The position numbers and the translations under genes are program-made. Below the pieces are notes generated by a model that saw nothing but the letters and a program-made list of their open reading frames with translations, searched no databases and was not told where the DNA came from. A stretch of 32,147 nt of DNA from a virus (taxonomy: Duplodnaviria > Heunggongvirae > Uroviricota > Caudoviricetes), in the IMG/VR virus record IMGVR_UViG_2537562172_000009, positions 1-32,147 of that record, one strand, 5' to 3'. Shown piece by piece: positions 172 to 17,355 of this stretch (positions within the stretch are counted from its first letter, which is position 1; each line of letters starts with the position of its first letter).

Positions 172-1221
172 TTATGCAACCTCTGCCGCCATATTGTCGC
201 CAACATACAGCGATAACGGATTAAGGGTTACAGCTTGTTCAAGGTGGTCAGGAGCAAAGTGTGCATACTTCATTGTTTCTCGAATATTGGCATGCCCGAG
301 AATTTTCTGCAGTACCAGTATATTCCCGCCGTTCATCATAAAATGCGCACCAAAAGTATGACGCAAAACGTGCGTCTTCTGCCCTTCCGTCAATTCAATA
401 TTCGTTAGTTTGAGCATCTTCTTAAACTCCTGATAGCAGGGTTTAAACATTCTGCCTTGACGTACGGACAACTCGTCGTACAGCCATTTAGGAATAGGAA
501 CTGTGCGATTCTTCTTACCTTTGGTTTTGGTGAACGTCAGTTTATATGGAGAAAGTTGAGGGCGGGTCAATCTCTCCGCTTCCCCCCATCGAGCGCCGGT
601 TGCAAGGCACACCTTAACAATCATGGTGAGGTCTTCTTTGCCGTATTGCTCGCAGGCTCGAAACAGCTCCGGGAGCTGAGACAAAGTTAGCCAGGACATT
701 TCTTTCTCAGCCTCTTTGAATACTCGGATCCCATCAAGTGGATTGGGTAGGCTCCACTCCCCTAACCGGCGGAGCTCATTAAACACTGCTTCTAGGTATT
801 GTTGTTCGCGATTGACGGTTATAGGTTTGGCGATCCATTTCGAGGGGTCTTTATGATAACCGTTGTCTATTTCACCACGTAATCGACGGTCACGATAATG
901 AGCCCAGTCTTTCGCGGTAAGGCGAGATGCAATCGGGTCACCAAGCCCATTACATACGATTTGAAGCTTTGCTAACCTCGACTTACTGGCGACTAACGCT
1001 TGACCGTGCAAATTGTGCCAAAGCTGAATAATCTCGCTTAAGCGTCGGCGGTCTTCTTTCTTGCCAAGCCACGGCTTATCTTCACTCTCGCTTTTGGTAA
1101 ATGCTTCGAATGCCTCGGCCTCACCTTTGGTATTGAATTGCCGACGTATACGCCGCCCTTCTCGACCATTTGGATAGAGCTCGCATAACCATTTGCCATT
1201 TTTTTGCTTACTTACAGTCAT
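172..1221 (-). CDS. int: tyrosine-type site-specific integrase (P2/186 family)
   Basis: 349-aa ORF; ATG at 1219-1221 (minus); C-terminal catalytic region with R...HxxR...Y-type motifs (VLRHTFGAHF, KYAHF); sits at the prophage end downstream of the repressor, as in P2/186. Confidence 0.93.
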   Translation of the reverse strand: MTVSKQKNGKWLCELYPNGREGRRIRRQFNTKGEAEAFEAFTKSESEDKPWLGKKEDRRRLSEIIQLWHNLHGQALVASKSRLAKLQIVCNGLGDPIASRLTAKDWAHYRDRRLRGEIDNGYHKDPSKWIAKPITVNREQQYLEAVFNELRRLGEWSLPNPLDGIRVFKEAEKEMSWLTLSQLPELFRACEQYGKEDLTMIVKVCLATGARWGEAERLTRPQLSPYKLTFTKTKGKKNRTVPIPKWLYDELSVRQGRMFKPCYQEFKKMLKLTNIELTEGQKTHVLRHTFGAHFMMNGGNILVLQKILGHANIRETMKYAHFAPDHLEQAVTLNPLSLYVGDNMAAEVA

Positions 1222-1590: not shown

Positions 1591-2451
1591 TTATACGTGT
1601 TTTTCCAATGTGAAAACTACAACCCCGGCAGGCGTAATGTCGGTAATGTTGCATTCAAACTCAGCAGACTTATTTGACAACCTGACTTTTCCACCAGGTA
1701 AACGAATTACATCAAAAACATCAAGAGCGCCGTCGATATCAATTAACCAGCGACCATTACTTATATTCGAAGCAGAACAGTCGACAAGCCAAGAGGCAGC
1801 TACACCGTCAACAAAAATCAATTCCCCTGAGTTAGAAGGAATCATTGAGGGGTCAGGATGCCACGTTCCTGCATCCTTAAGCTCACCAGATTCAAGACGA
1901 GATTTTTTAATAGAAAAACCAGATGTGACATCTTCCCTGTTAGCTCGCATTTGCCCCTTGCCTGTTGCTAACCATTCCAGTGACGTATCGGTATCAAGAG
2001 CGCATGTAACAACAACATCACCAGGGAAAAAATCTCGCCTTACCCATGTGCTAATTGTGCCAGAGGAAATGCCGAGCAAATCACCGAGCTCCTTTTGCAT
2101 GGTAAAGCCATACGCATCAAGAATCCTACGCAAAACGGTTTTACCACCATTCGTCATAATCTCGTCATAAAGCTCTTTGCCTTTTAACTTGCAACTGGCT
2201 CGCTCGTGATTTGCATTTGCAAGCTCTCCATTTACAAGCCAATTGATATCAGCTCCCGTGTCAAGACAACACCTAACTATGACATTGCCAGGTATTGCAT
2301 CACGCTGAACCCAGCCGCTAACGCTGTGTTTAGCGATACCTAGCAGGTCAGCCAAATCCTTTTGCATCTTGACCCCATAGGCTGACATTAAGCGTTCCAA
2401 TACGCCGTTCGTTGCACTAACACGCCACTGAACATCAAGCTCAGAACTCAT
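1591..2451 (-). CDS. immunity repressor, 186 CI-like, with tandemly duplicated N-terminal HTH domain
   Basis: 286 aa. Two homologous about 65-aa segments (LERLMSAYGVKMQKDLADLLGIAKHSVSGWVQRDAIPGNVIVRCCLDTGADINWLVNGE and LRRILDAYGFTMQKELGDLLGISSGTISTWVRRDFFPGDVVVTCALDTDTSLEWLATGK) resembling the phage 186 CI-type HTH domain, followed by an about 115-aa C-terminal domain. Divergent from the Cox/Apl-like gene and upstream of int. Confidence 0.8.
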   Translation of the reverse strand: MSSELDVQWRVSATNGVLERLMSAYGVKMQKDLADLLGIAKHSVSGWVQRDAIPGNVIVRCCLDTGADINWLVNGELANANHERASCKLKGKELYDEIMTNGGKTVLRRILDAYGFTMQKELGDLLGISSGTISTWVRRDFFPGDVVVTCALDTDTSLEWLATGKGQMRANREDVTSGFSIKKSRLESGELKDAGTWHPDPSMIPSNSGELIFVDGVAASWLVDCSASNISNGRWLIDIDGALDVFDVIRLPGGKVRLSNKSAEFECNITDITPAGVVVFTLEKHV

Positions 2452-2976: not shown

Positions 2977-3486
2977 ATGTTTGATTTTCAGGTTTCCAAA
3001 CATCCCCACTATGACGAAGCATGCCGCATTTTCGCACAGCGTCACAACATGGCGAAGCTGGCCGAGCGTGCAGGTATGAACGTTCAAACGTTACGTAACA
3101 AGCTCAACCCGGAACAGCCTCACCAGTTCACGCCGTCTGAATTGTGGCTGCTGACTGACCTGACCGAAGACTCAACCCTCATTGATGGTTTTTTAGCGCA
3201 GATTCACTGCCTACCATGCGTGCCGGTTAATGAGTTGGCTAAAGACAAATTGCAGTCTTATGTCATGCGCGCAATGCGTGAACTCGGCGAACTGGCGAGC
3301 GGCGCGGTATCTGATGAACGTCTGACCATTGCCCGTAAGCACAACATGATTGAAAGCGTTAACTCCGGCATTCGCATGTTGTCATTGTCGGCTCTGGCGC
3401 TGCATGCACGTCTGCAGACTAATCCAGCTATGTCGAGCGTGGTCGATACCATGAGCGGTATTGGCGCATCGTTTGGCCTGATTTGA
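2977..3486 (+). CDS. cII: 186 CII-like transcriptional regulator
   Basis: ATG at 2977 preceded by AGAGGGA (8-nt spacing); 169 aa, same length as 186 CII as I recall it; HTH MAKLAERAGMNVQTLRNKL; position directly after apl/cox as in 186. The ORF-track start at 2947 is a TTG without SD. Confidence 0.7.
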   Translation: MFDFQVSKHPHYDEACRIFAQRHNMAKLAERAGMNVQTLRNKLNPEQPHQFTPSELWLLTDLTEDSTLIDGFLAQIHCLPCVPVNELAKDKLQSYVMRAMRELGELASGAVSDERLTIARKHNMIESVNSGIRMLSLSALALHARLQTNPAMSSVVDTMSGIGASFGLI

Positions 3487-4291: not shown

Positions 4292-4512
4292 TGGCCGACG
4301 CAATGGATTTAGCACAACTGCGCGAGCAGGAAGACCGCGAACGCCACATCAGCAACGCACGCACCCGTATCGCTGCACCTTCCCGTTTTCTTTGCGAGGA
4401 ATGTGACGCACCAATCCCGGAAGCTCGCCGCATTGCGATTCCGGGCGTGGCTTTTTGCGTAACCTGCCAGCAAATCGCAGAGCTAAAAAACAAACACTAT
4501 CGGGGGGTATAA
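4291..4512 (+). CDS. TraR/DksA-family C4 zinc-finger protein
   Basis: 73 aa with CEEC-x17-CVTC (FLCEECDAPIPEARRIAIPGVAFCVTCQ), the signature spacing of TraR/DksA-type zinc fingers; tightly packed in the early operon. Confidence 0.7.
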   Translation: MADAMDLAQLREQEDRERHISNARTRIAAPSRFLCEECDAPIPEARRIAIPGVAFCVTCQQIAELKNKHYRGV

Positions 4513-4513
4513 A

Positions 4514-6736
4514 TTGGCTGTTCAATTCGCTTATCCGTGGAACGTCCCACGGTCGGCAATCTCCAGCCCATACCTTACTTATGAGCAACAGCATCGCCGC
4601 GACCGTATGTTCGCGGCTTTGCTGCATGCAAAAAAGGTGCTTTCTCTCCAGCCCGACTGCGTGCGGTTAGATGTTTATCGCACTGCTGCGGTGCTGGAGC
4701 AAAATCAGGGTAGTCAACGAGCCAATGCATTTTTAATCAGCTTCTGCAAAAAGGCATTGCCGCGTCTTGAACTGGTCGCAAAAAAATACGAATGCGCTGG
4801 TATCAACAGCAAGGTATCAACCGCTGTTTTTGGAAGTCATTTTGATACTCAGCAAATGCAATATCTGTCGTCACGCATGGTTAATATGGTCGCCCGATAT
4901 AACCGTCTCCCGGACATGTCGCGCGCTGATGTTGACCTGTTGGCCGCTGATATTGCTAATTTCATTCGTGGTGAACTTGCCAACATTAATGACCACGGAT
5001 TCGGCGAGCTTAAAACGCTGTACACCTGGTATATTCGTGCTGGCTTTATTTCCCTCCAATTCAACGTTATCCCACCACATTGGGAGCGGGTTGAAAAAAA
5101 ATATGTCGGTGCGGATGAAATCGCACCGGCTATCGCCAAAATGTTTAACGATGGGTGGTGGCGCGGTCGTTTGCGCCGTGTAGCAGCTACGTGGCGCGAA
5201 CACCTGCAAATTGCAGTCGGCAACGTCAGTAAGAAAAAAAACACTTACGCGAGTAAAAACTGCGTGACTGACTGGCGTGAACAAAAGCGCCGCACTCGTG
5301 AATTTCTCAAAGGTCTGGATCTCGAAGACGAAGACGGCAACCGTATCAGCCTAATTGAAAAATATGATGGCTCAGTTGCTAACCCTGCGATTCGCCGCTG
5401 TGAGCTCATGACCCGCATTCGTGGGTTTGAAAACATCTGTAATGAGCTCGGTTATGTCGGTGAGTTTTACACTCTAACCGCGCCGTCAAAATATCACGCC
5501 ACGACTAAAGCCGGTTACCGTAACAGCAAATGGAGCGGTGCCAGCCCGGCTGACACGCAAAACTATCTAACCGGTATCTGGGCGCGTATCCGTGCCAAAC
5601 TACATCGGGAAGATGTCCGTATTTTCGGTATTCGTGTCGCCGAGCCCCATCACGACGGCACTCCACACTGGCACATGCTGATGTTCATGCTGCCGGAAGA
5701 TGTTGAATATGTTCGCTCCATCGTCCGTAAATACGCATGGAAAGAAGACCGCCACGAACTGAAAAGCGATAAATCCAAAAAAGCACGTTTCCACGCGGAG
5801 TCCATTGACCCGGAGAAAGGCAGCGCAACCGGCTATGTTGCTAAATACATTTCAAAAAATATCGACGGTTATGCTCTCGATGGTGAAACCGATGATGAAA
5901 GCGGTGAGCTGCTGAAAGAGACAGCCCCCGCCGTTTCAGCATGGGCTGCGCGCTGGCACATCCGTCAGTTTCAGTTTATTGGTGGTGCGCCGGTGACGGT
6001 TTACCGTGAGTTGCGTCGCCTCGCTGATACCGAAACCGCGCACGGTCTGAGCGTTGAGTTTGCCGCCGTCCATGATGCCGCCGACGCTGGTGACTGGGCT
6101 GGTTATGTTAATGCTCAGGGTGGGCCGTTTGTCCGTCGCGATGATTTACAGGTGCGCACACTGTATGAACCGCGTACCGAGCTTAATCAGTACGGTGAGG
6201 AAACGGTATGTATTAAGGGGGTCTACGATTCCTCCATAGGTGCAGGAAGCCCGATTTTAACCCGGCTCACTCAGTGGAAGATTGTTCCGAAGCGTGCTGT
6301 TGATTTGGCCGTTGACCTTCAGGACGGCAAAGCCGTCCCTCGGAGTTCTGTCAATAACTGTACGGGAAGCGAAAACGAGCCACCGGAACTTGATTTATCA
6401 AAACCGCTGAGTCGACGTGAAAAGCGAGAGCTGACAAATCGACTCAGGAAGAAAAAACCAGCGACAAGGCAAAAATTCACACACGGAAGGGATGAACAAA
6501 ACGACTCTATAGAAAGAACCATCGACGAAATACACCTGACCACTGGCGTAACGATAAGCCGGGGTGAAGCCCTGCACCTAATGGCGGGTGGCAAATGCTG
6601 CTTTGAAGGGAAATGGCTTAGAGGAACAGCCAATGGTGAGCTATTTAGAGCCGCGCAGCCTTACTCCGCCAAAGCTAAGAATATCCTTAAGCGAGTTGCA
6701 AAACTGGCAGAAACGGCAAAATTACCACGTGATTAA
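4514..6736 (+). CDS. A: replication initiation endonuclease (P2 gpA / 186 RepA family, HUH rolling-circle initiator)
   Basis: 740 aa; HUH-type metal-binding motif GTPHWHMLMF and active-site tyrosine motif ATGYVAKYISKN; follows the small early ORFs as in P2. Start as given is a TTG (4514) one codon after the upstream stop, with a G-run SD; the next in-frame ATG is 31 codons downstream. Confidence 0.88.
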   Translation: MAVQFAYPWNVPRSAISSPYLTYEQQHRRDRMFAALLHAKKVLSLQPDCVRLDVYRTAAVLEQNQGSQRANAFLISFCKKALPRLELVAKKYECAGINSKVSTAVFGSHFDTQQMQYLSSRMVNMVARYNRLPDMSRADVDLLAADIANFIRGELANINDHGFGELKTLYTWYIRAGFISLQFNVIPPHWERVEKKYVGADEIAPAIAKMFNDGWWRGRLRRVAATWREHLQIAVGNVSKKKNTYASKNCVTDWREQKRRTREFLKGLDLEDEDGNRISLIEKYDGSVANPAIRRCELMTRIRGFENICNELGYVGEFYTLTAPSKYHATTKAGYRNSKWSGASPADTQNYLTGIWARIRAKLHREDVRIFGIRVAEPHHDGTPHWHMLMFMLPEDVEYVRSIVRKYAWKEDRHELKSDKSKKARFHAESIDPEKGSATGYVAKYISKNIDGYALDGETDDESGELLKETAPAVSAWAARWHIRQFQFIGGAPVTVYRELRRLADTETAHGLSVEFAAVHDAADAGDWAGYVNAQGGPFVRRDDLQVRTLYEPRTELNQYGEETVCIKGVYDSSIGAGSPILTRLTQWKIVPKRAVDLAVDLQDGKAVPRSSVNNCTGSENEPPELDLSKPLSRREKRELTNRLRKKKPATRQKFTHGRDEQNDSIERTIDEIHLTTGVTISRGEALHLMAGGKCCFEGKWLRGTANGELFRAAQPYSAKAKNILKRVAKLAETAKLPRD

Positions 6737-6850
6737 TTTGTCTCTATATCATGAACATACATCACAAAACTGATCTTCATTTTTTCTTCCCATCTTTTGC
6801 CATTACGTGCTACTGTATAAACATACAGTATTTTTATTGGGAGGGATTTC

Positions 6851-7033
6851 ATGGTTGGGGAGCATTTCAGCCGGGCGCAGCAAAAGTGGGCTTGTGTGCA
6901 ATTCATCGCCGAGGTATCTCTGATTGCAAACTGCAAACCATCAGACCTAAAGCTTGCTCTGACTCTCATTGCTGACTTAGCAAATAGTGAAAATAATGAA
7001 ACCGAAGAAGGCATGTTTTATGAGGCTGAGTAG
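6851..7033 (+). CDS. small acidic hypothetical protein
   Basis: 60-aa ORF; strong SD GGGAGGGA 5-8 nt before the ATG; acidic C-terminus (SENNETEEGMFYEAE); internal repeat FIAEVSLIAN / LTLIADLAN; stop overlaps a perfect palindrome. Confidence 0.4.
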   Translation: MVGEHFSRAQQKWACVQFIAEVSLIANCKPSDLKLALTLIADLANSENNETEEGMFYEAE

Positions 7034-7053
7034 GTTATGTAACTAACCTACTC
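7028..7053. repeat. perfect 10-bp inverted repeat with 6-nt spacer
   Basis: GAGTAGGTTA-TGTAAC-TAACCTACTC; overlaps the stop of the small ORF; not followed by a T-run. Confidence 0.6.
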
Positions 7054-7067
7054 TGAAAAAACAATCA

Positions 7068-7094
7068 AACCGGCACCATGATTGCCGGTTTTTT
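7068..7094 (+). terminator. rho-independent terminator ending the early/replication transcript
   Basis: AACCGGCA-CCATGAT-TGCCGGTT followed by TTTT(ATGTGT): GC-rich core stem, 7-nt loop, U-run. Confidence 0.65.
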
Positions 7095-7194
7095 ATGTGT
7101 TCTATCAAAAGGATGGGGTCTGACATTCTCATCATCAGAATTGTGTTATTTTAGTGCAACTCATTCGTCGTTAGACATTGTAAGGGCAATGTAT

Positions 7195-7905
7195 ATGAAA
7201 CCAAGCACACACTGCGTTTATTGTGGTGTTCTCATGAACAGGATTGAAAATCACCCCCACTGCCGCTCAGTTGAACACATGATCCCGCAAGTTTCAGTCT
7301 CCATTCATAGAACCAACGGCGAAGGCGATTTCCATGTATGCAAAAAGTGCAATGCCGATAAAAGCCGAATTGACGAGGTATTGGGTGTCATTTGCCGCAT
7401 GGTTGGTGAGCACTCAACAGGCAGTTTCGATGCTATCAATAAATTCAAAAATGCTCTTAAAAGAAATGATTCAAAATTCCGCGAGGCATTCCAAAGTGTT
7501 AAACATACAGGAAGAGGTGCGCAGATAACCTTACCCCTTGAAGGCAAAGAGATTTATCGATATGGCTCGTGGTTAGCAAAGGGCGTCTTTTTCTTAGAGT
7601 ATGAGCAGTTGTTGCCGCCAGATAAATTAATCTGGGTAAATATCGTTCGCCATGATGAAGTAATGGCTATTAGAGACATGTATAGAAATCAGCGTGGTTC
7701 TGAAGCTTTTGAGGACTTGTCCAAAAACAGCAATGTGCCAAACATTAACGGGGAATCTTTCCTGATTGTTGGCCGTGAAGCTAAGGAAATGTTCATATGT
7801 TTCAATCGCGTAATGATGTTCCATATAAAAATATTAGATAAGTCATTCATTAATCAAAAAAAATGCAAAAAATCACTACTTATGCTTGATAAGAGAATTC
7901 GATAA
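7195..7905 (+). CDS. HNH-motif nuclease-domain protein with uncharacterised C-terminal domain (accessory)
   Basis: 236 aa from the ATG at 7195 (SD TAAGGG 8 nt upstream; the ORF-track start at 7078 lies inside the terminator loop). N-terminus carries CxxC (CVYCG), EH (SVEHMIPQ) and H-x-CxxC-N (HVCKKCNADK), the HNH/zinc-finger nuclease arrangement. AT-rich. Confidence 0.65.
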   Translation: MKPSTHCVYCGVLMNRIENHPHCRSVEHMIPQVSVSIHRTNGEGDFHVCKKCNADKSRIDEVLGVICRMVGEHSTGSFDAINKFKNALKRNDSKFREAFQSVKHTGRGAQITLPLEGKEIYRYGSWLAKGVFFLEYEQLLPPDKLIWVNIVRHDEVMAIRDMYRNQRGSEAFEDLSKNSNVPNINGESFLIVGREAKEMFICFNRVMMFHIKILDKSFINQKKCKKSLLMLDKRIR

Positions 7906-8093
7906 AAATTTGAGATTAGGTAGATGCGGTTTGGCATTTGTCGCATGCGTTGAACTCACCACTCTTTCTGTGGGTATCTATTCGTTGGTAGCCGGTAGCC
8001 TTATGTAAAGCCACGCGGTTTGCTTTTAGTGGAATAGTTTTCATTGATTATTGTAAGATTGAGATCTTTATCTTAAAGAGGATTTTGCTACGT

Positions 8094-9701
8094 ATGTCTG
8101 CACAAAGCATATCAAGCCTTTTGAAGGCTAATAAATGGATCGATACGAATGTAGGTAAGTTTGAGTTTAAAAAAGAAATTGGTGAAGGGGGCAATAGCAA
8201 CGTGTTCCTTTTTTCTAATTCAGGGCATGATTTTGCAATAAAATTCTTAAAGCCAAGTAAAGATCATAGAAAAACAGATAGGTTTAAAGATGAGTTTTTT
8301 TGTGTATCTCAAATGCCATCCAACAAATACATTGTACAATACTACCACTTAGATAAAATAACAATCGATGATGTTGATTATTACATCATTATCATGAAGC
8401 CATACGCTCGGTCCTTAAAAAAAGATTTTGCCAGTACAAACTCTGCTGAAGAATATGAACGCGATGTGCGGAAATTATTTAATCATTTATTTAATGGGTT
8501 AAGACATATTCATAGCCATGGCGTTATTCATAGAGATCTTAAGCCTGAAAATATTTTTATTGACAGTGCTACCGACTCTTATGTAATCGGAGACTTTGGA
8601 ATATCAAGATTCGATGATGAGTTTTTTGCACGTTTGTCCCAGACCAGAGAAAGTGAACGATTGGCAAATTATAAATTTTCCGCACCAGAACAGTCATCGG
8701 GAAATCATGAGATCACTGTACGTAGCGATATTTACGCGCTCGGTCAGATTATGCAATATTTTAGTACTGGAGATGTGAGCAAGGGCAACGGAAGAGAAAA
8801 ATTATCCTATAGTAATGTTAGCGAGTTTATTGCCATTCTGGATGATATTATAGGGAAGTGTATCATGCACAACCCCAACGACAGATTCTCTTCTTTGGAT
8901 GATATGGCTGAATATTATAAATCGAAACTTGAATCTAATAAAAGATTAAAAGAGGCCCAGTTTAGGCAAAAAGAAGAGTCGGAAATGTGGGGTTTCCTTC
9001 ATGCATTTGATGACGCAATAGTAAGATCTGTCCCCCATATAAATAGAGTGGAAAAAATCACTTCGGATTTAGACATTGAATTATTTCTTTCAAGCATTGA
9101 TGGCACTATTAGCACAGAAAACACAAAAGATTCACTCTGGATGATTAAGTCGGATGGTGGGGATCTAAACTACTACGGGTCAAAATTAAAGCAAGGCAAA
9201 TACTTTGAGATAAACTTTGGTGGGTTCATCACTGAAGTGAATATAGATTCAATTGATGTATATTATGATAGCCACTATCATCATAAAAACTTCTTCATAA
9301 TCATCATCAGTGGCATGCCTCCTTTCGAATTTAACGACATATCGGACTTATCAAAGAAAAAGATGAGAAGTAAAATAACCTCAAAAGATGATTATTGTAT
9401 TGAGTGGAATGGGTATTGTTTAGATCCTAACGATGTAAGAAATAAATACGTAAAAATTGAAGGGACAACATATAGGGTTAGTCACGAGGATTTCAAGGAT
9501 GTACATCGCTGTATAAAAAGAGATGCATTCCTTGTTGTTCCAACCGGTACACCATCATCACATATGAATGATCGGTCTGTTGCAACGGACCTAATAAATG
9601 CGTGCTTAACGAACCCAAATGGACTAGTTACAACAGATGTAGACCTTTATTTGAGAAGAATCAGGGACCATTATCAGTCTTGGATTCGTAACAGCTTGTA
9701 G
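8094..9701 (+). CDS. Hanks-type Ser/Thr protein kinase fused to an about 250-aa domain of unknown function (accessory)
   Basis: 535 aa from the ATG at 8094 (SD AAAGAGGA upstream; the TTG at 8085 is too close to it). Gly-rich loop IGEGGNSNVF, beta3 Lys in FAIKFLK, catalytic loop HRDLKPEN, DFG (VIGDFGIS), APE (FSAPE), subdomain IX DIYALG. Very AT-rich. Confidence 0.8.
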   Translation: MSAQSISSLLKANKWIDTNVGKFEFKKEIGEGGNSNVFLFSNSGHDFAIKFLKPSKDHRKTDRFKDEFFCVSQMPSNKYIVQYYHLDKITIDDVDYYIIIMKPYARSLKKDFASTNSAEEYERDVRKLFNHLFNGLRHIHSHGVIHRDLKPENIFIDSATDSYVIGDFGISRFDDEFFARLSQTRESERLANYKFSAPEQSSGNHEITVRSDIYALGQIMQYFSTGDVSKGNGREKLSYSNVSEFIAILDDIIGKCIMHNPNDRFSSLDDMAEYYKSKLESNKRLKEAQFRQKEESEMWGFLHAFDDAIVRSVPHINRVEKITSDLDIELFLSSIDGTISTENTKDSLWMIKSDGGDLNYYGSKLKQGKYFEINFGGFITEVNIDSIDVYYDSHYHHKNFFIIIISGMPPFEFNDISDLSKKKMRSKITSKDDYCIEWNGYCLDPNDVRNKYVKIEGTTYRVSHEDFKDVHRCIKRDAFLVVPTGTPSSHMNDRSVATDLINACLTNPNGLVTTDVDLYLRRIRDHYQSWIRNSL

Positions 9702-9939: not shown

Positions 9940-10048
9940 TGCGCGCAGCACACACTTGCAATTTGATATTTTTGGTGTAAAAAATCGGTGTCAATGAGTA
10001 GAAGATGAAAAAATAATAACCAAAGGTTACTAAATCAAGGATGTGCCG

Positions 10049-10867
10049 ATGAAAGTTAGCTATGACGTTGTCATCAAAAGTGGTGATCAAGAAGTTGATA
10101 TGGAGTATGGCCTTGATACCCTCTCTGGAACGGCTGAGGTGACATGCATACTAGCAGAGGCAATACTCAGAAAAAAAATTATTAAGCGCCGCACTCATGT
10201 TAACCCTGCGCGAGCGGTTCTCAAACAAAGCTTTAAAAGTTCTTATGGTCAAAACTTCGACTTGATTGTTAATGAGCCGGAATTAGCTGCCGAATTAAAA
10301 AAAATGACCCGTTCTGTGTTCTCGGAAGTCATGGGGTATTTTATTTCTGAATCTCTATATCTGGAAACTAAGGAGCTATCTCCAAAAGCTGCAGGAATTA
10401 TTGAGGAGCTTGAGGAAATTGAAGATGAACTTATTGATCGTATCAGACAACCTTTGGTAAGGATGCATAGGATAAATCTTCAAAAAAACTTTGATGTTGA
10501 ACTTAACTATAAAAAACCTGCTGGCAAACAAAGAATAGCAAAGTTAGACACAATGACTGCTACAAACTTGACACAATCAAAAATAATGCCCGGTCAAGTT
10601 AATATTAACGCAGTTATTACTCGATTTAATGCGAGAACTGGAAATGGTAGGTTAGTTATCGAAGGTGAAGATGATACAGTAGCCTTTGGTTTTTACATGC
10701 CTTTAAAGGCTATACCCGCCGCTCAAAAAAGATTGGTCTCATTAAATTTACACAATAATAATGGCAGGCAAGATAACTACACATATCTAAAACTTACTGT
10801 TAGTAAAGTTGTAGTAAAAAGTGGTGATGTGGTGAAATATCTAATCCGTATGGTTGAAACTGTATGA
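10049..10867 (+). CDS. hypothetical soluble protein, first gene of a coupled two-gene accessory cassette
   Basis: 272 aa from the ATG at 10049 (AAGGA 7 nt upstream); AT-rich; near-identical short motif close to both termini (YDVVIKSGDQEV and KVVVKSGDVVKY); stop overlaps the next start (ATGA). Confidence 0.6.
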   Translation: MKVSYDVVIKSGDQEVDMEYGLDTLSGTAEVTCILAEAILRKKIIKRRTHVNPARAVLKQSFKSSYGQNFDLIVNEPELAAELKKMTRSVFSEVMGYFISESLYLETKELSPKAAGIIEELEEIEDELIDRIRQPLVRMHRINLQKNFDVELNYKKPAGKQRIAKLDTMTATNLTQSKIMPGQVNINAVITRFNARTGNGRLVIEGEDDTVAFGFYMPLKAIPAAQKRLVSLNLHNNNGRQDNYTYLKLTVSKVVVKSGDVVKYLIRMVETV

Positions 10868-11589
10868 GAAAGGTGTTGCTGTCTTCGGCTGGCGTGATTG
10901 TAGCTGTGTGCGCCTTGTATTACTTCAACTTCGGAGTAAACGGACATTTATCCAGCAAGACTGATGTTTGGGCGCAGTTTGGTGATTATTTGGGTGGTGT
11001 CGTCAACCCTATACTTTCATTTATTACAATTTACCTCCTTATAAATTCAATAAAACTTCAAAGGGAGGCTAATTCCAGCCTGATCGATGAAGTAAAAAGG
11101 CAAGAATCTTTAGAAGAGTATAAAAAATTTGAAGTGAGATTTTTCCATTTGGTTGAATGTCAGGATTCTAACTTTGAAAGGTTTTGTGTTCAAGTTGGTG
11201 ATGTTGATGGACAAACTGACGGGGTGGTCGAAGAATTTACAAGTGGTGCAGCCGTAACTTATCTTGAAGATAATATTGTAATTTTAGTTAAAGCCAAGGT
11301 GAAAAAAGAGGTAATAACAAAGTGGTTAAGTGAAGTGGATGCTAATGATTGCATTTTTTCAGTGGTGCGTCGCTTTTATTTGATTGTGAAGTTGATAGAT
11401 AATTGCGGGGTTGAACGGGAAGATTATTATGAAACATTAGTTAACTTAACTGACATAAAAATAATATCTTTAGTTGCAATGGCTTGTACATACTACGAGT
11501 GGGATATCGTAAAGTATATCCATGACAGTAAAATACTTGAACGAGATGGAGTTAAAGAGTTTGTTTCGCAAATATCCACTCACGATTGA
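10864..11589 (+). CDS. hypothetical membrane protein (2 predicted N-terminal TM helices), second gene of the cassette
   Basis: 241 aa; hydrophobic segments LLSSAGVIVAVCALYYF and GDYLGGVVNPILSFITIYLLINSI followed by a charged soluble domain; ATGA overlap with the upstream gene. Confidence 0.6.
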   Translation: MRKVLLSSAGVIVAVCALYYFNFGVNGHLSSKTDVWAQFGDYLGGVVNPILSFITIYLLINSIKLQREANSSLIDEVKRQESLEEYKKFEVRFFHLVECQDSNFERFCVQVGDVDGQTDGVVEEFTSGAAVTYLEDNIVILVKAKVKKEVITKWLSEVDANDCIFSVVRRFYLIVKLIDNCGVEREDYYETLVNLTDIKIISLVAMACTYYEWDIVKYIHDSKILERDGVKEFVSQISTHD

Positions 11590-15533: not shown

Positions 15534-16601
15534 ATGCGCCCGGAAACCCGTTTTAAGTTCAATGCCTATCTGACCCGCGTCGCTGAGCTGAACGGCATCA
15601 GCACTGATGACGTCAGTAAAAAATTCACCGTCGAGCCGTCCGTCACGCAAACGCTGATGAACAAAGTGCAGGAGTCATCCGCGTTTCTGCAGACGATTAA
15701 CATTCTGCCGGTCGCAGAAATGAAGGGGGAGAAAATCGGCGTCGGTGTGACCGGTACTATCGCCAGCACGACCGACACCTCGGGCGATGATGAGCGTAAG
15801 ACCGCAGACTTCACCGCGCTTGAGTCCAACAAGTACGAGTGCGACCAGATTAACTTTGACTTCCATCTGAAATATAAAACCCTCGACCTGTGGGCGCGTT
15901 TTCAGGACTTTCAGCGCCGCATCCGTGACGCCATTGTTAAGCGTCAGGCGCTCGATTTCATCATGGCCGGTTTTAACGGTACCACCCGCGCCGCCACCTC
16001 TGACCGCACCAAAAATCCGATGCTGCAGGATGTAGCCGTCGGCTGGCTGCAGAAATACCGCAACGAAGCCCCGACGCGTGTGATGAGCAATATCACCGAT
16101 GCTGACGGTAAGGTCGTTTCGGCAGTGATTCGCGTCGGTAAAAACGGCGACTATGAGAACCTCGACGCGCTGGTGATGGATGCTACCAACAACCTGATTG
16201 ACGAGGTTTATCAGGATGACCCGAAACTCGTTGCCATCGTTGGCCGTAAGCTGCTGGCCGACAAATATTTCCCGCTGGTGAACAAGCCGCAAGAAAACAG
16301 CGAAGCGCTCGCGGCAGATATCATCATCAGCCAGAAGCGAATCGGCAACCTGCCTGCTGTGCGTGTGCCGTACTTCCCGGCGAATGCCGTGTTAGTGACA
16401 ACGCTGGAAAACCTCTCTATCTATTTCATGGATGAGAGCCACCGCCGCAGCATTGATGAAAACCCGAAAAAAGACCGCGTGGAAAACTACGAGTCAATGA
16501 ATATCGACTATGTGGTCGAGGCGTATGCCGCCGGGTGTCTGCTGGAAAACATCACCCTGGGCGATTTCACCGCACCTGCAGCACCGGAAAGCGGAGAGTA
16601 A
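15534..16601 (+). CDS. N: major capsid protein
   Basis: 355 aa; follows the scaffold gene; size and position match P2 gpN. Confidence 0.88.
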   Translation: MRPETRFKFNAYLTRVAELNGISTDDVSKKFTVEPSVTQTLMNKVQESSAFLQTINILPVAEMKGEKIGVGVTGTIASTTDTSGDDERKTADFTALESNKYECDQINFDFHLKYKTLDLWARFQDFQRRIRDAIVKRQALDFIMAGFNGTTRAATSDRTKNPMLQDVAVGWLQKYRNEAPTRVMSNITDADGKVVSAVIRVGKNGDYENLDALVMDATNNLIDEVYQDDPKLVAIVGRKLLADKYFPLVNKPQENSEALAADIIISQKRIGNLPAVRVPYFPANAVLVTTLENLSIYFMDESHRRSIDENPKKDRVENYESMNIDYVVEAYAAGCLLENITLGDFTAPAAPESGE

Positions 16602-16605
16602 GCCC

Positions 16606-17355
16606 ATGACGAGCCCCGCACAGCGTCACATGATGCGGGTCTCGGCCTCTCAAGCCGCGCAGCGGGAACAAGCCCCGCTGCGCCATGCAACCGCCTACGA
16701 GCAGATGCTGGTAAAGCTGGCCGATGACCGCCGCACGTTGAAAACCATCCGTTCAAACGAACTGAAAGCCGCGAAAAAGCGTGAGCTGCTGCCGTTCTAT
16801 GCGCCGTGGGTCGCCGGTGTGCTGGCTGATGGCCGTGGTGCGCAGGATGACATTCTGATGACAGTCATGCTGTGGCGTCTCGATGCCGGTGATATCGCTG
16901 GCGCGCTGGAAATTGCGCCATACGCGCTGAAGTACGGCCTCACCTCTGACTATCGCCGCACGACACCTTACATGCTGGTTGAGGAGGTGGCGCTTGCCGC
17001 GCTGCGCCTGCGCGATGCCGGTGAGCCTGTCGACCTCGCATTACTGCTGACCACCCTTAGCCTGACCGACGGCGCTGACGTTCCCGATATGGTGCGCGCT
17101 CGACTGCATAAGGTGACCGGTCTAACCCTGCGCGATGCCGGTCAGAGCGCCGAAGCACTGGCACAGTTTCAGCGCGCGATGCAGCTCGACCGCAATGCCG
17201 GTGTGCGCAAAGAGATTGAGCGACTGGAGCGGGCATTGAAGCCTAAGCCCGATGCCGCGCCCCGTAAAACGACTAAACCGCGCACGCGCAAACCTGCCAC
17301 CAAACCGGCGGCAAAGCGCGGGCGTCCACCAAAGGCGGTAAAAACCGCCGGTTAA
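16606..17355 (+). CDS. M: terminase small (endonuclease) subunit
   Basis: 249 aa from the ATG at 16606 (SD GGAGAG upstream; the ORF-track start at 16510 overlaps N); Arg/Lys/Pro-rich C-terminus; size and position match P2 gpM. Confidence 0.82.
   Translation: MTSPAQRHMMRVSASQAAQREQAPLRHATAYEQMLVKLADDRRTLKTIRSNELKAAKKRELLPFYAPWVAGVLADGRGAQDDILMTVMLWRLDAGDIAGALEIAPYALKYGLTSDYRRTTPYMLVEEVALAALRLRDAGEPVDLALLLTTLSLTDGADVPDMVRARLHKVTGLTLRDAGQSAEALAQFQRAMQLDRNAGVRKEIERLERALKPKPDAAPRKTTKPRTRKPATKPAAKRGRPPKAVKTAG

Follow-up and report, generated by a model that had tools for sequence, protein, structure and literature searches.

In phage 186, cleavage of LexA derepresses tum, and the Tum protein binds the CI repressor and prevents it from binding its operators (Shearwin et al. 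1998, summarised in PMC3121763). In PSP3, the antirepressor activity resides in the upstream half-gene (personal communication quoted in PMC3121763), and in a P2-like E. coli prophage, deletion of tum abolished induction by mitomycin (PMC12055606). LexA-repressed small proteins that inactivate non-cleavable repressors by binding to them are also known as GfoA and GftA (Gifsy/Fels-1) and AntC (N15), and they are often linked to dinI (PMC3121763). The gpA-gpQ region has been described as a hotspot for anti-phage cargo (Rousset et al. 2022, PMC9122126).

The whole window (the 32,147-nucleotide stretch of DNA that was analysed) is a P2-family prophage of the PSP3/186 type (Eganvirus-like). It encodes an integrase (172-1221, minus strand), a 286-aa PSP3-type immunity repressor, cI (1591-2451, minus strand; two stretches matching Pfam Phage_CI_repr plus Phage_CI_C), a CII (CP76) homologue, and the rolling-circle replicase gpA (4514-6736; Pfam Phage_GPA, 2.4e-130). 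Portal and terminase genes follow from 11620 onward, as placed by ORF position and by the portal annotations of homologous E. coli loci. The small gene considered here starts at 6851, directly 3' of gpA, and this order is the same in PSP3, in 186, and in all of the loci fetched. Since the window is a P2-family prophage with this order, the locus lies at the left edge of the gpA-gpQ hotspot.

We identify the small ORF (6851-7033, plus strand), with a probability of about 0.85, as tumA, the antirepressor gene of a PSP3/186-type P2-family prophage. The assignment to a 60-aa SOS-inducible antirepressor of the split-Tum type draws on homology, codon-position bias, and a structural model. The product aligns with PSP3 TumA at 90% identity along its entire 60-residue length (E=5e-42), and its PHROGs match is phrog_1993 (E=6e-30). 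PHROGs was the only profile collection to recognise the 60-aa protein, with no match in Pfam, NCBIfam, or PADLOC. At the DNA level, a blastn search of phage records with positions 6700-7200 yielded ten records from seven Eganvirus-type phages, namely PSP3, SEN1, SI22, SW9, vB_EcoM-613R3, Midge, and RCIP0057, with identities of 82-88%; phages 186 and EtG matched in the promoter segment only. The gene matched in PSP3 carries the record annotation 'tumA, similar to 5' end of 186 tum; UV induction of prophage'. The exact TumA protein of the window was present in 415 blocks of the assembly collection. This is an already-described gene in an ordinary setting, and nothing here alters the current understanding of it.

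The first-pass annotation of this stretch had described a 60-aa ORF with a strong Shine-Dalgarno sequence, an acidic tail, and an internal LIA repeat, all of which were found. The ORF is in the ORF list at 6851-7033, and the Shine-Dalgarno sequence GGGAGGGA (6839-6846, plus strand) has its GGAGG core 6 nt before the ATG. This site is kept as TGGGAGGGATT(T)CATG in the PSP3-type relatives that were inspected. The repeat corresponds to LIAN and LIADLAN motifs that are conserved in the family, and the acidic tail is present but variable, in contrast to residues 13-47 (WACVQFIAEVSLIANCKPSDLKLALSLIADLANSE), which are almost invariant. A search of a large protein collection returned 206 homologous clusters, nearly all of 59-61 aa and several of them named TumA in UniRef, from Escherichia, Salmonella, Klebsiella, Enterobacter, Citrobacter, Cronobacter, Kosakonia, Buttiauxella, Pluralibacter, and other hosts. 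In 21 full-length homologous coding sequences, the differences from the tumA of the window at codon positions 1, 2, and 3 numbered 161/74/499 (61/11/289 in the core). This bias indicates purifying selection on the tumA frame, and the minus-strand ORF that overlaps it (6733-7014) is therefore spurious. The first-pass annotation had made conservation of the ORF in related prophages a condition of its reading; the breadth of the family and the codon-position bias show that the gene is real.

The relationship to the longer Tum protein of 186 is more distant. BLASTP of TumA against 186 Tum gave no alignment. The family profile aligned residues 16-47 to residues 14-45 of 186 Tum (hhalign E=1.3e-4, at a probability of only 54%). 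Promoter homology and synteny support common descent, and in combination with them this weak profile alignment favours the established picture of 186 Tum as a TumA-like antirepressor fused to a DinI-like domain (PMC3121763). The AlphaFold model of TumA is a two-helix hairpin (residues 8-25 and 30-48) with a disordered acidic tail (pLDDT 70). Foldseek against the PDB returned only meaningless matches with E above 5, and searching the PDB by sequence gave no match.

A promoter homologous to p95 of phage 186 precedes tumA. Alignment to p95 placed a -35 element TTCCCA (6787-6792) and a -10 element TACTGT (6811-6816) on the plus strand, separated by an 18-nt spacer; the annotated p95 is TTCACA-18-TACTGT and is labelled 'p95 promoter / LexA' in the 186 record. 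The promoter in the window (6787-6816) was not picked up by a generic promoter scan, as its match to the consensus is too weak. A LexA box, TACTGTATAAACATACAGTA (6811-6830), starts at and overlaps the -10 element and corresponds by homology to the LexA site annotated in 186. The box is a 20-bp palindrome of the CTGT-N8-ACAG pattern, is unique in the window (0 expected), and agrees at 18/20 positions with the LexA consensus, TACTG(TA)5CAGTA. We surveyed 36 loci, consisting of 28 GTDB species-representative genomes, the window, and seven further phage or E. coli loci. A box of the type TACTGTAT-N4-ATACAGTA was present 5' of the tumA ATG in 36/36 loci and lay 35-41 nt from it in 35 of them. At the remaining locus, L047, the box is 70 nt before the tumA start, and the TumA match there begins at residue 11. 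Of the features near the small ORF, the LexA box is the most informative, and it had been absent from the first-pass description.

The prophage also carries the repressor expected to go with this antirepressor. Its CI has a duplicated N-terminal HTH and a CI C-terminal domain, and a domain search of the 286-aa protein gave no S24 peptidase match. Its identity to PSP3 CI is 98.3%, compared with 32% for 186 CI. A CI at least 73% identical is encoded by every phage in which the blastn search found tumA-like DNA (vB_EcoM-613R3, SEN1, SI22, SW9, PSP3, Midge, and RCIP0057), and this joint carriage is what would be expected of a cognate antirepressor-repressor pair. The CI encoded at 1591-2451 is presumed, by analogy, to be the target of TumA.

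By this analogy, host LexA in the lysogen would occupy the box at 6811-6830, over the -10 element of the p95-like promoter, and keep tumA silent. DNA damage would activate RecA, LexA would cleave itself, and the p95-like promoter would fire. The strong Shine-Dalgarno sequence would then give a burst of the 60-aa TumA, with its predicted two-helix hairpin and acidic tail. TumA would bind CI and block the binding of CI to its operators, and the prophage would pass to lytic growth. Transcription of tumA would largely end at the terminator hairpin at 7067-7091. The sequence comparisons establish what the gene is, its synteny, the LexA box, the cognate CI, conservation across the family, and the terminator; we infer the protein-protein step between TumA and CI from published work on 186 Tum and PSP3 TumA.

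The 3' end of the gene differs from that of its relatives. Homology to the tumA-tumB phages and prophages ends at 7039, at the ATG of tumB. Relatives read '...GCT GAT TAG ATT ATG AGA ATC AAT...' (tumB = MRINITLDK...), whereas the window reads '...GCT GAG TAG GTT ATG TAA CTAACCTACTCTGAAAAAACAATC'. DNA homology thus identifies a tumB stub in which the ATG start is fused directly to a TAA stop (7037-7042, plus strand), and no TumB homologue was found within 900 nt downstream of tumA in the window. Tracts homologous to tumA were present in 77 other complete E. coli genomes, most of which continue into a DinI-family tumB. Among the species-level tumA loci, tumB was undetected in 21 of 28. FORC064 (L006) has tumA only, yet it keeps sequence that is normally 3' of tumB, and the Pantoea loci L046/L047 appear, as read from their flanks, to keep an 8-codon tumB stub. 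These comparisons suggest that several lineages lost tumB independently, each by a deletion of its own. In the window, ACTCTGAAAAAACAATC (7050-7066) resembles the sequence that follows the tumB or tum stop, which is TAACTGCTGAAAAATGTTCAATCC in L015, the closest tumAB relative found (TumA 92% identical), and TAATCCCTGAAAAATGTGCAACC in 186 (shuffle p = 0.006).

A perfect palindrome enclosing the stop codon had been reported in the first-pass annotation, and an inverted-repeat search recovered it as 10-bp arms, GAGTAGGTTA (7028-7037) and TAACCTACTC (7044-7053), with a 6-nt spacer. The TAG stop of tumA (7031-7033) is within the left arm. This arm consists of the end of tumA, the stop, and the spacer of the tumB ribosome site, that is, of ordinary tumA/tumB-junction sequence. 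The right arm amounts to about 10 nt at the deletion or replacement junction, with a source that was untraceable in the collections searched. An exact 17-mer scan of IMG/VR gave one match, in a 214-kb contig, which we took as chance, and the same scan of a metagenome collection gave 71 matches, none with tumA context. When the tumB region of L015 was used as a BLAST query against E. coli genomes, no relative had AACCTACTC after tumB. A search of 5,426 complete E. coli genomes recovered the arrangement three times, always in the same lineage, and other tumA-only lineages are without this palindrome. We conclude that the palindrome is probably a lineage-specific junction scar of the loss of tumB. 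It is most likely a by-product of that deletion and, at most, would add a second RNA hairpin close to the 3' terminus of the short tumA transcript. The scar is deduced from distribution and is not a reconstructed event, because the right arm could not be traced to its origin. As a speculation, snap-back (template-switch) repair at the junction would yield such an inverted copy.

Two perfect inverted repeats in the window have arms of 10 bp or longer and loops of 3-10 nt, where 0.33 would be expected, and 23% of simulated windows contained at least one, so that the palindrome is only mildly unexpected. Its stem has G-C pairs at 4/10 positions and is followed by UGAAAAAA on the plus strand, with no T run on the minus strand. 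Because a U tract is lacking after the stem on either strand, the palindrome is not an intrinsic terminator. We also considered whether it was a copy of an RNA-like element of the hotspot. The best covariance match, on the minus strand at 7039-7100, scored 11 bits (E=0.2) and was not significant, and Rfam had no match in the window or in eight related loci.

Of the alternatives, the one that fares best holds that the palindrome is a selected RNA element, in which the hairpin over the stop and the adjoining 'ATG TAA' tune TumA output and thereby the induction threshold after the loss of TumB. RNA from 7015 to 7105 folds into exactly two hairpins, the palindrome and the terminator (MFE -27.6 kcal/mol, z = -4.3), and the stop codon has a predicted pairing probability of 1.00, a value reached by 0/200 shuffles. 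A perfect 10-bp stem of this kind could affect translation termination or mRNA decay, and the lineage that carries it is common (the 415 blocks mentioned above) and invariant in sequence. The palindrome was identical in all fetched copies, including a sub-lineage with different distal cargo. However, invariance accompanies the near-identity of the whole loci and is therefore uninformative on selection, and there is no covariation to test. The comparison with other lineages also counts against an RNA element. Among 21 tumA-only lineages, the stop was significantly buried in structure in the window only; in L028/L029, also tumA-only, the stop falls in the left arm of an imperfect hairpin, but 19/21 lineages behaved like shuffles. 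A hairpin over the stop as a general property of tumA-only loci was thereby ruled out. Given also how mildly unexpected the repeat is window-wide, we consider a selected RNA element unlikely. If it were correct, the loss of tumB would have left a selected post-transcriptional device that would set the induction threshold, and not a neutral scar. A broader version, in which the hairpin and the start-stop mini-ORF set the TumA dose and with it the SOS threshold and partial read-through of the terminator in addition places the HNH and PD-T4-6-like cargo downstream under DNA-damage control, is improbable in our estimation.

The first-pass annotation had also raised the possibility that the palindrome is a protein-binding site. 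The palindrome would then be a DNA site for a dimeric protein (CI, an Apl/Cox-like protein, or a regulator of the defence cassette) or a recombination site for cassette exchange, and both its perfect dyad symmetry and its position, precisely where conserved phage DNA gives way to variable cargo, would suit such a role. We found no sign of it. A window-wide scan for the half-site gave a single further match, with one mismatch, in a tail gene, and none at the CI/early-promoter region, which rules out the half-site as a repeated operator. The palindrome is confined to one lineage and absent from every other hotspot border examined, including that of Ecol_545, which has the same HNH cassette, and the exact-match scans of viral and metagenome collections returned chance matches only. 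A DNA site of either kind is thus very improbable, and the palindrome is better explained as the scar of tumB loss.

Beyond the palindrome lies an intrinsic terminator, AAACCGGCA-N7-TGCCGGTTT followed by a T run (7067-7097, plus strand; hairpin 7067-7091). The terminator scan gave a 9-bp stem with five G-C pairs and a 7-nt loop, and the element has the G+C-rich stem and U tract that define this class. It begins 14 nt after the palindrome, as the first-pass annotation had placed it. The terminator is the end of the tumA transcript and the left edge of the HNH cassette, and it occupies the position of t95a in 186. The HNH-like gene (7195-7905, plus strand) encodes 236 aa and is preceded by the Shine-Dalgarno sequence TAAGGG; its most likely start is 7195 rather than the ATG that falls in the terminator loop at 7078. 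Its product has a CxxC...EH...CxxCN layout by eye and a weak PtuB/HNH match (E=1.4e-4). The 538-aa protein encoded downstream is a Ser/Thr kinase of the PD-T4-6 type (E=9e-36).

The HNH cassette, composed of the terminator, a promoter-like leader, and the HNH-like gene, is homologous from 7065 onward to DNA in E. coli Ecol_545 (L007), with about 85% identity for the cassette DNA and 86% for the HNH-like protein. In Ecol_545, the cassette does not adjoin tumA; tumB, one other ORF, and more intergenic sequence come in between. The HNH homologue was found only in the lineage of the window and in Ecol_545. It was detected at 0/28 species-level tumA loci, and its adjacency to tumA was restricted to the lineage of the window (3/80 E. 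coli genomes with tumA). In relatives of the L015 type, tumA-tumB is followed directly by the kinase, without the HNH gene. The natural occurrence of the HNH gene apart from tumA in Ecol_545 suggests that it may be tolerated without tumA. We conclude that neither the HNH-like gene nor the PD-T4-6-type kinase is a partner of TumA and that both belong to the exchangeable cargo carried in the gpA-gpQ defence hotspot. By analogy with the annotation of t95a and orf97 in 186, any partial read-through of the terminator would make this cargo SOS responsive.

The weakest alternative, that the small acidic protein is an antitoxin, an immunity protein, or a dedicated regulator of an HNH-like nuclease, takes its appeal from the adjacency of the two genes on the same strand, from the size and acidity of TumA, and from the weak PtuB/HNH-type motif of the neighbour, but it is extremely unlikely when tumA occurs in 28 species-level loci without a detectable downstream HNH homologue and in 77 further E. 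coli genomes in which homology mostly runs on into tumB, when the Ecol_545 cassette stands apart from tumA, when 161 nt and a terminator that is part of the HNH cassette separate the tumA stop from the HNH-like start, and when PADLOC and Pfam antitoxin models give no TumA match. A dedicated TumA-HNH pair is thus unsupported, given the intervening terminator and the failure to detect an HNH homologue at any of the 28 species-level tumA loci. The first-pass annotation had compared the two genes to antitoxin-toxin or regulator-effector pairs, and this comparison is not supported, with co-occurrence at 0/28 loci and the cassette apart from tumA in Ecol_545. Its own reservation, that the terminator argues for separate units, was borne out, and the terminator in fact belongs to the HNH cassette. 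The broader idea of a small regulator survives in part: a small regulator is encoded, but it is not paired with the HNH gene, and from its homology TumA would be aimed at the prophage's own CI.

The practical gain of assigning the gene as tumA is one of annotation, as an ORF that RefSeq calls a 'hypothetical protein' in the E. coli records examined becomes the induction switch of this prophage family. Because a LexA box precedes tumA, the prophage is predicted to be SOS inducible. SOS induction would then mobilise its anti-phage cargo (the PD-T4-6-type kinase and the HNH-like gene). That the DinI-like TumB was undetected in most tumA-carrying genera is a small point that should be useful in modelling the 186/PSP3 switch.

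Among known systems, type II toxin-antitoxin pairs resemble the locus in that a small acidic protein is encoded 5' of a nuclease-like gene. Unlike them, tumA has no conserved pairing, operon, or antitoxin domain and is LexA controlled, not autoregulated. A 'TumE-TumA' toxin-antitoxin family, reportedly described in Nature in 2023, has only the name TumA in common with the gene discussed here. GfoA, GftA, and AntC share the control logic proposed for TumA. Their hosts are lambdoid and N15 phages, whereas the phage here is P2-like, and in the Gifsy phages the gene order relative to dinI is the reverse of tumA-tumB.

The likeness is closer to the p95 SOS operon of 186, which comprises the 146-aa Tum, the terminators t95a and t95b, and orf97. 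In both phages, a homologous LexA-repressed promoter drives a product with the N-terminal antirepressor segment motif C..D...AL.LIA..A, and a terminator comes next, followed by an accessory gene of the exclusion type. The two differ in that 186 Tum has a DinI-like C-terminal half, whereas TumA of the window stops after 60 residues and gave no Pfam match to DinI. In addition, 186 CI has 192 aa and the CI of the window has 286 aa, and the N-terminal similarity to Tum is marginal. The closest counterpart is PSP3 TumA (NP_958094), from the split tumA-tumB SOS operon, which is like the gene of the window in its length of 60 aa, its site after the replicase, its Shine-Dalgarno sequence, and its LexA-box promoter. 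In PSP3, tumB begins 4 nt after the tumA stop and is annotated as 'similar to dinI and 3' end of 186 tum'. In the window, by contrast, tumB is cut to ATG-TAA, and the palindrome, the terminator, and the HNH/kinase cargo stand in its place.

In the tumA/tum prophages, the borders of cassettes within the gpA-gpQ hotspot repeatedly carry a conserved element of ~82 nt; the window itself has no copy. Across 18 loci we found 24 copies, without exception on the tumA strand, and 11 of the 20 predicted pairs show compensatory changes among them. The element consists of an 18-bp hairpin with many G-U pairs, followed by GGTTGAACAACGAGC-N4-CGAGGCGTTAG, and it has no match in Rfam. Example copies, all on that strand, lie at 3023-3104 of the phage 186 locus (L002), 2060-2140 and 2464-2545 of PSP3 (L001), 4484-4565 of the related locus L004, 4249-4330 of the FORC064 locus (L006), and 2841-2920 and 3244-3324 of the Ecol_545 locus (L007). 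In phage 186 the element sits after orf97 and before the terminator t95b, and in several loci with tumA only its start lies no more than a few nucleotides from the tumA stop codon. It may work as an RNA element or, in cargo exchange, as a recombination module, and it may be of greater novelty than the findings on tumA and its palindrome.

The cargo downstream of tumA in the window begins with an HNH-like protein of 236 amino acids (7195-7905, + strand; phrog_31193), which has a weak PtuB-like N-terminal motif and a C-terminal region of ~170 amino acids without annotation. Its gene, a terminator of its own upstream of it, and a conserved leader (7092-7194) travel together as a cassette; the Ecol_545 counterpart of the protein is 86% identical. 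The start at 7078 proposed by the ORF finder falls within the terminator loop and is probably wrong. For the Ser/Thr kinase of 538 amino acids (8085-9701, + strand), PADLOC gives a match to PD-T4-6, an anti-phage system made up of a single gene (E = 9e-36); the C-terminal half of this protein, ~240 amino acids, is without annotation. A kinase copy 81% identical to that of the window lies directly 3' of tumA-tumB in L015/L016.

The rest of the hotspot, as far as the portal gene, is occupied by two overlapping + strand genes (10043-10867 and 10864-11589; phrog_13337 and phrog_8999) with faint matches to DUF7946/DUF7947. In contrast, a DUF2188 gene replaces this pair in the sister lineage L013/L014. 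Only 30 nt separate the ORF at 10864-11589 from the portal stop codon, and the cos site must therefore overlap this ORF. Apart from the palindrome at the tumA stop codon, the window has just one perfect inverted repeat whose arms reach 10 bp or more; it lies farther along, at 16657-16683, after the ORF at 15534-16601. This G+C-rich repeat, GCGCAGCGGG-N7-CCCGCTGCGC, is presumably a terminator or an RNA hairpin of the late operon.

We additionally compared the region just 3' of tumA in L006, L039, and L046/L047 with that in L004 and L045. In E. coli FORC064, Escherichia sp. ESNIH1, and Pantoea, separate deletions running nearly from start to stop appear to have removed the dinI-like gene tumB. 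Judging from the flanks in L006, L039, and L046/L047, these deletions would have left short stubs. Only 7 of the 28 species-level tumA loci had a detectable tumB. The DinI-like partner TumB seems to be dispensable and is perhaps counter-selected.

The tumA promoter has been the target of an insertion in a prophage otherwise identical to that of the window. In E. coli LR-21-1 (L003/L010, ~4713-6000), and also at the end of a metagenome contig (L012), the region that corresponds to window positions 6780-6817 is affected: ISKox3, an element of the ISL3 family, interrupts the LexA box in its left half. The insertion cuts the p95-like promoter off from tumA. Such a prophage is probably locked in a noninducible state or deregulated. 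The LR-21-1 genome also carries an IS3 element within the kinase gene.

Between the integrase gene and cI, the window encodes a DUF2511 protein (1244-1654, - strand), possibly a lysogenic-conversion (moron) gene. As listed, the ORF shares ~60 nt with the 3' end of cI, so the true start may be internal. The PSP3-type CI repressor (1591-2451, - strand) owes its length of 286 amino acids to a tandem duplication of its N-terminal HTH domain, a feature that may bear on how it is engaged by the 60-amino-acid TumA. Each of the two copies, at residues ~17-76 and ~106-165, shares 33% identity with the HTH domain of 186 CI, which has only one.
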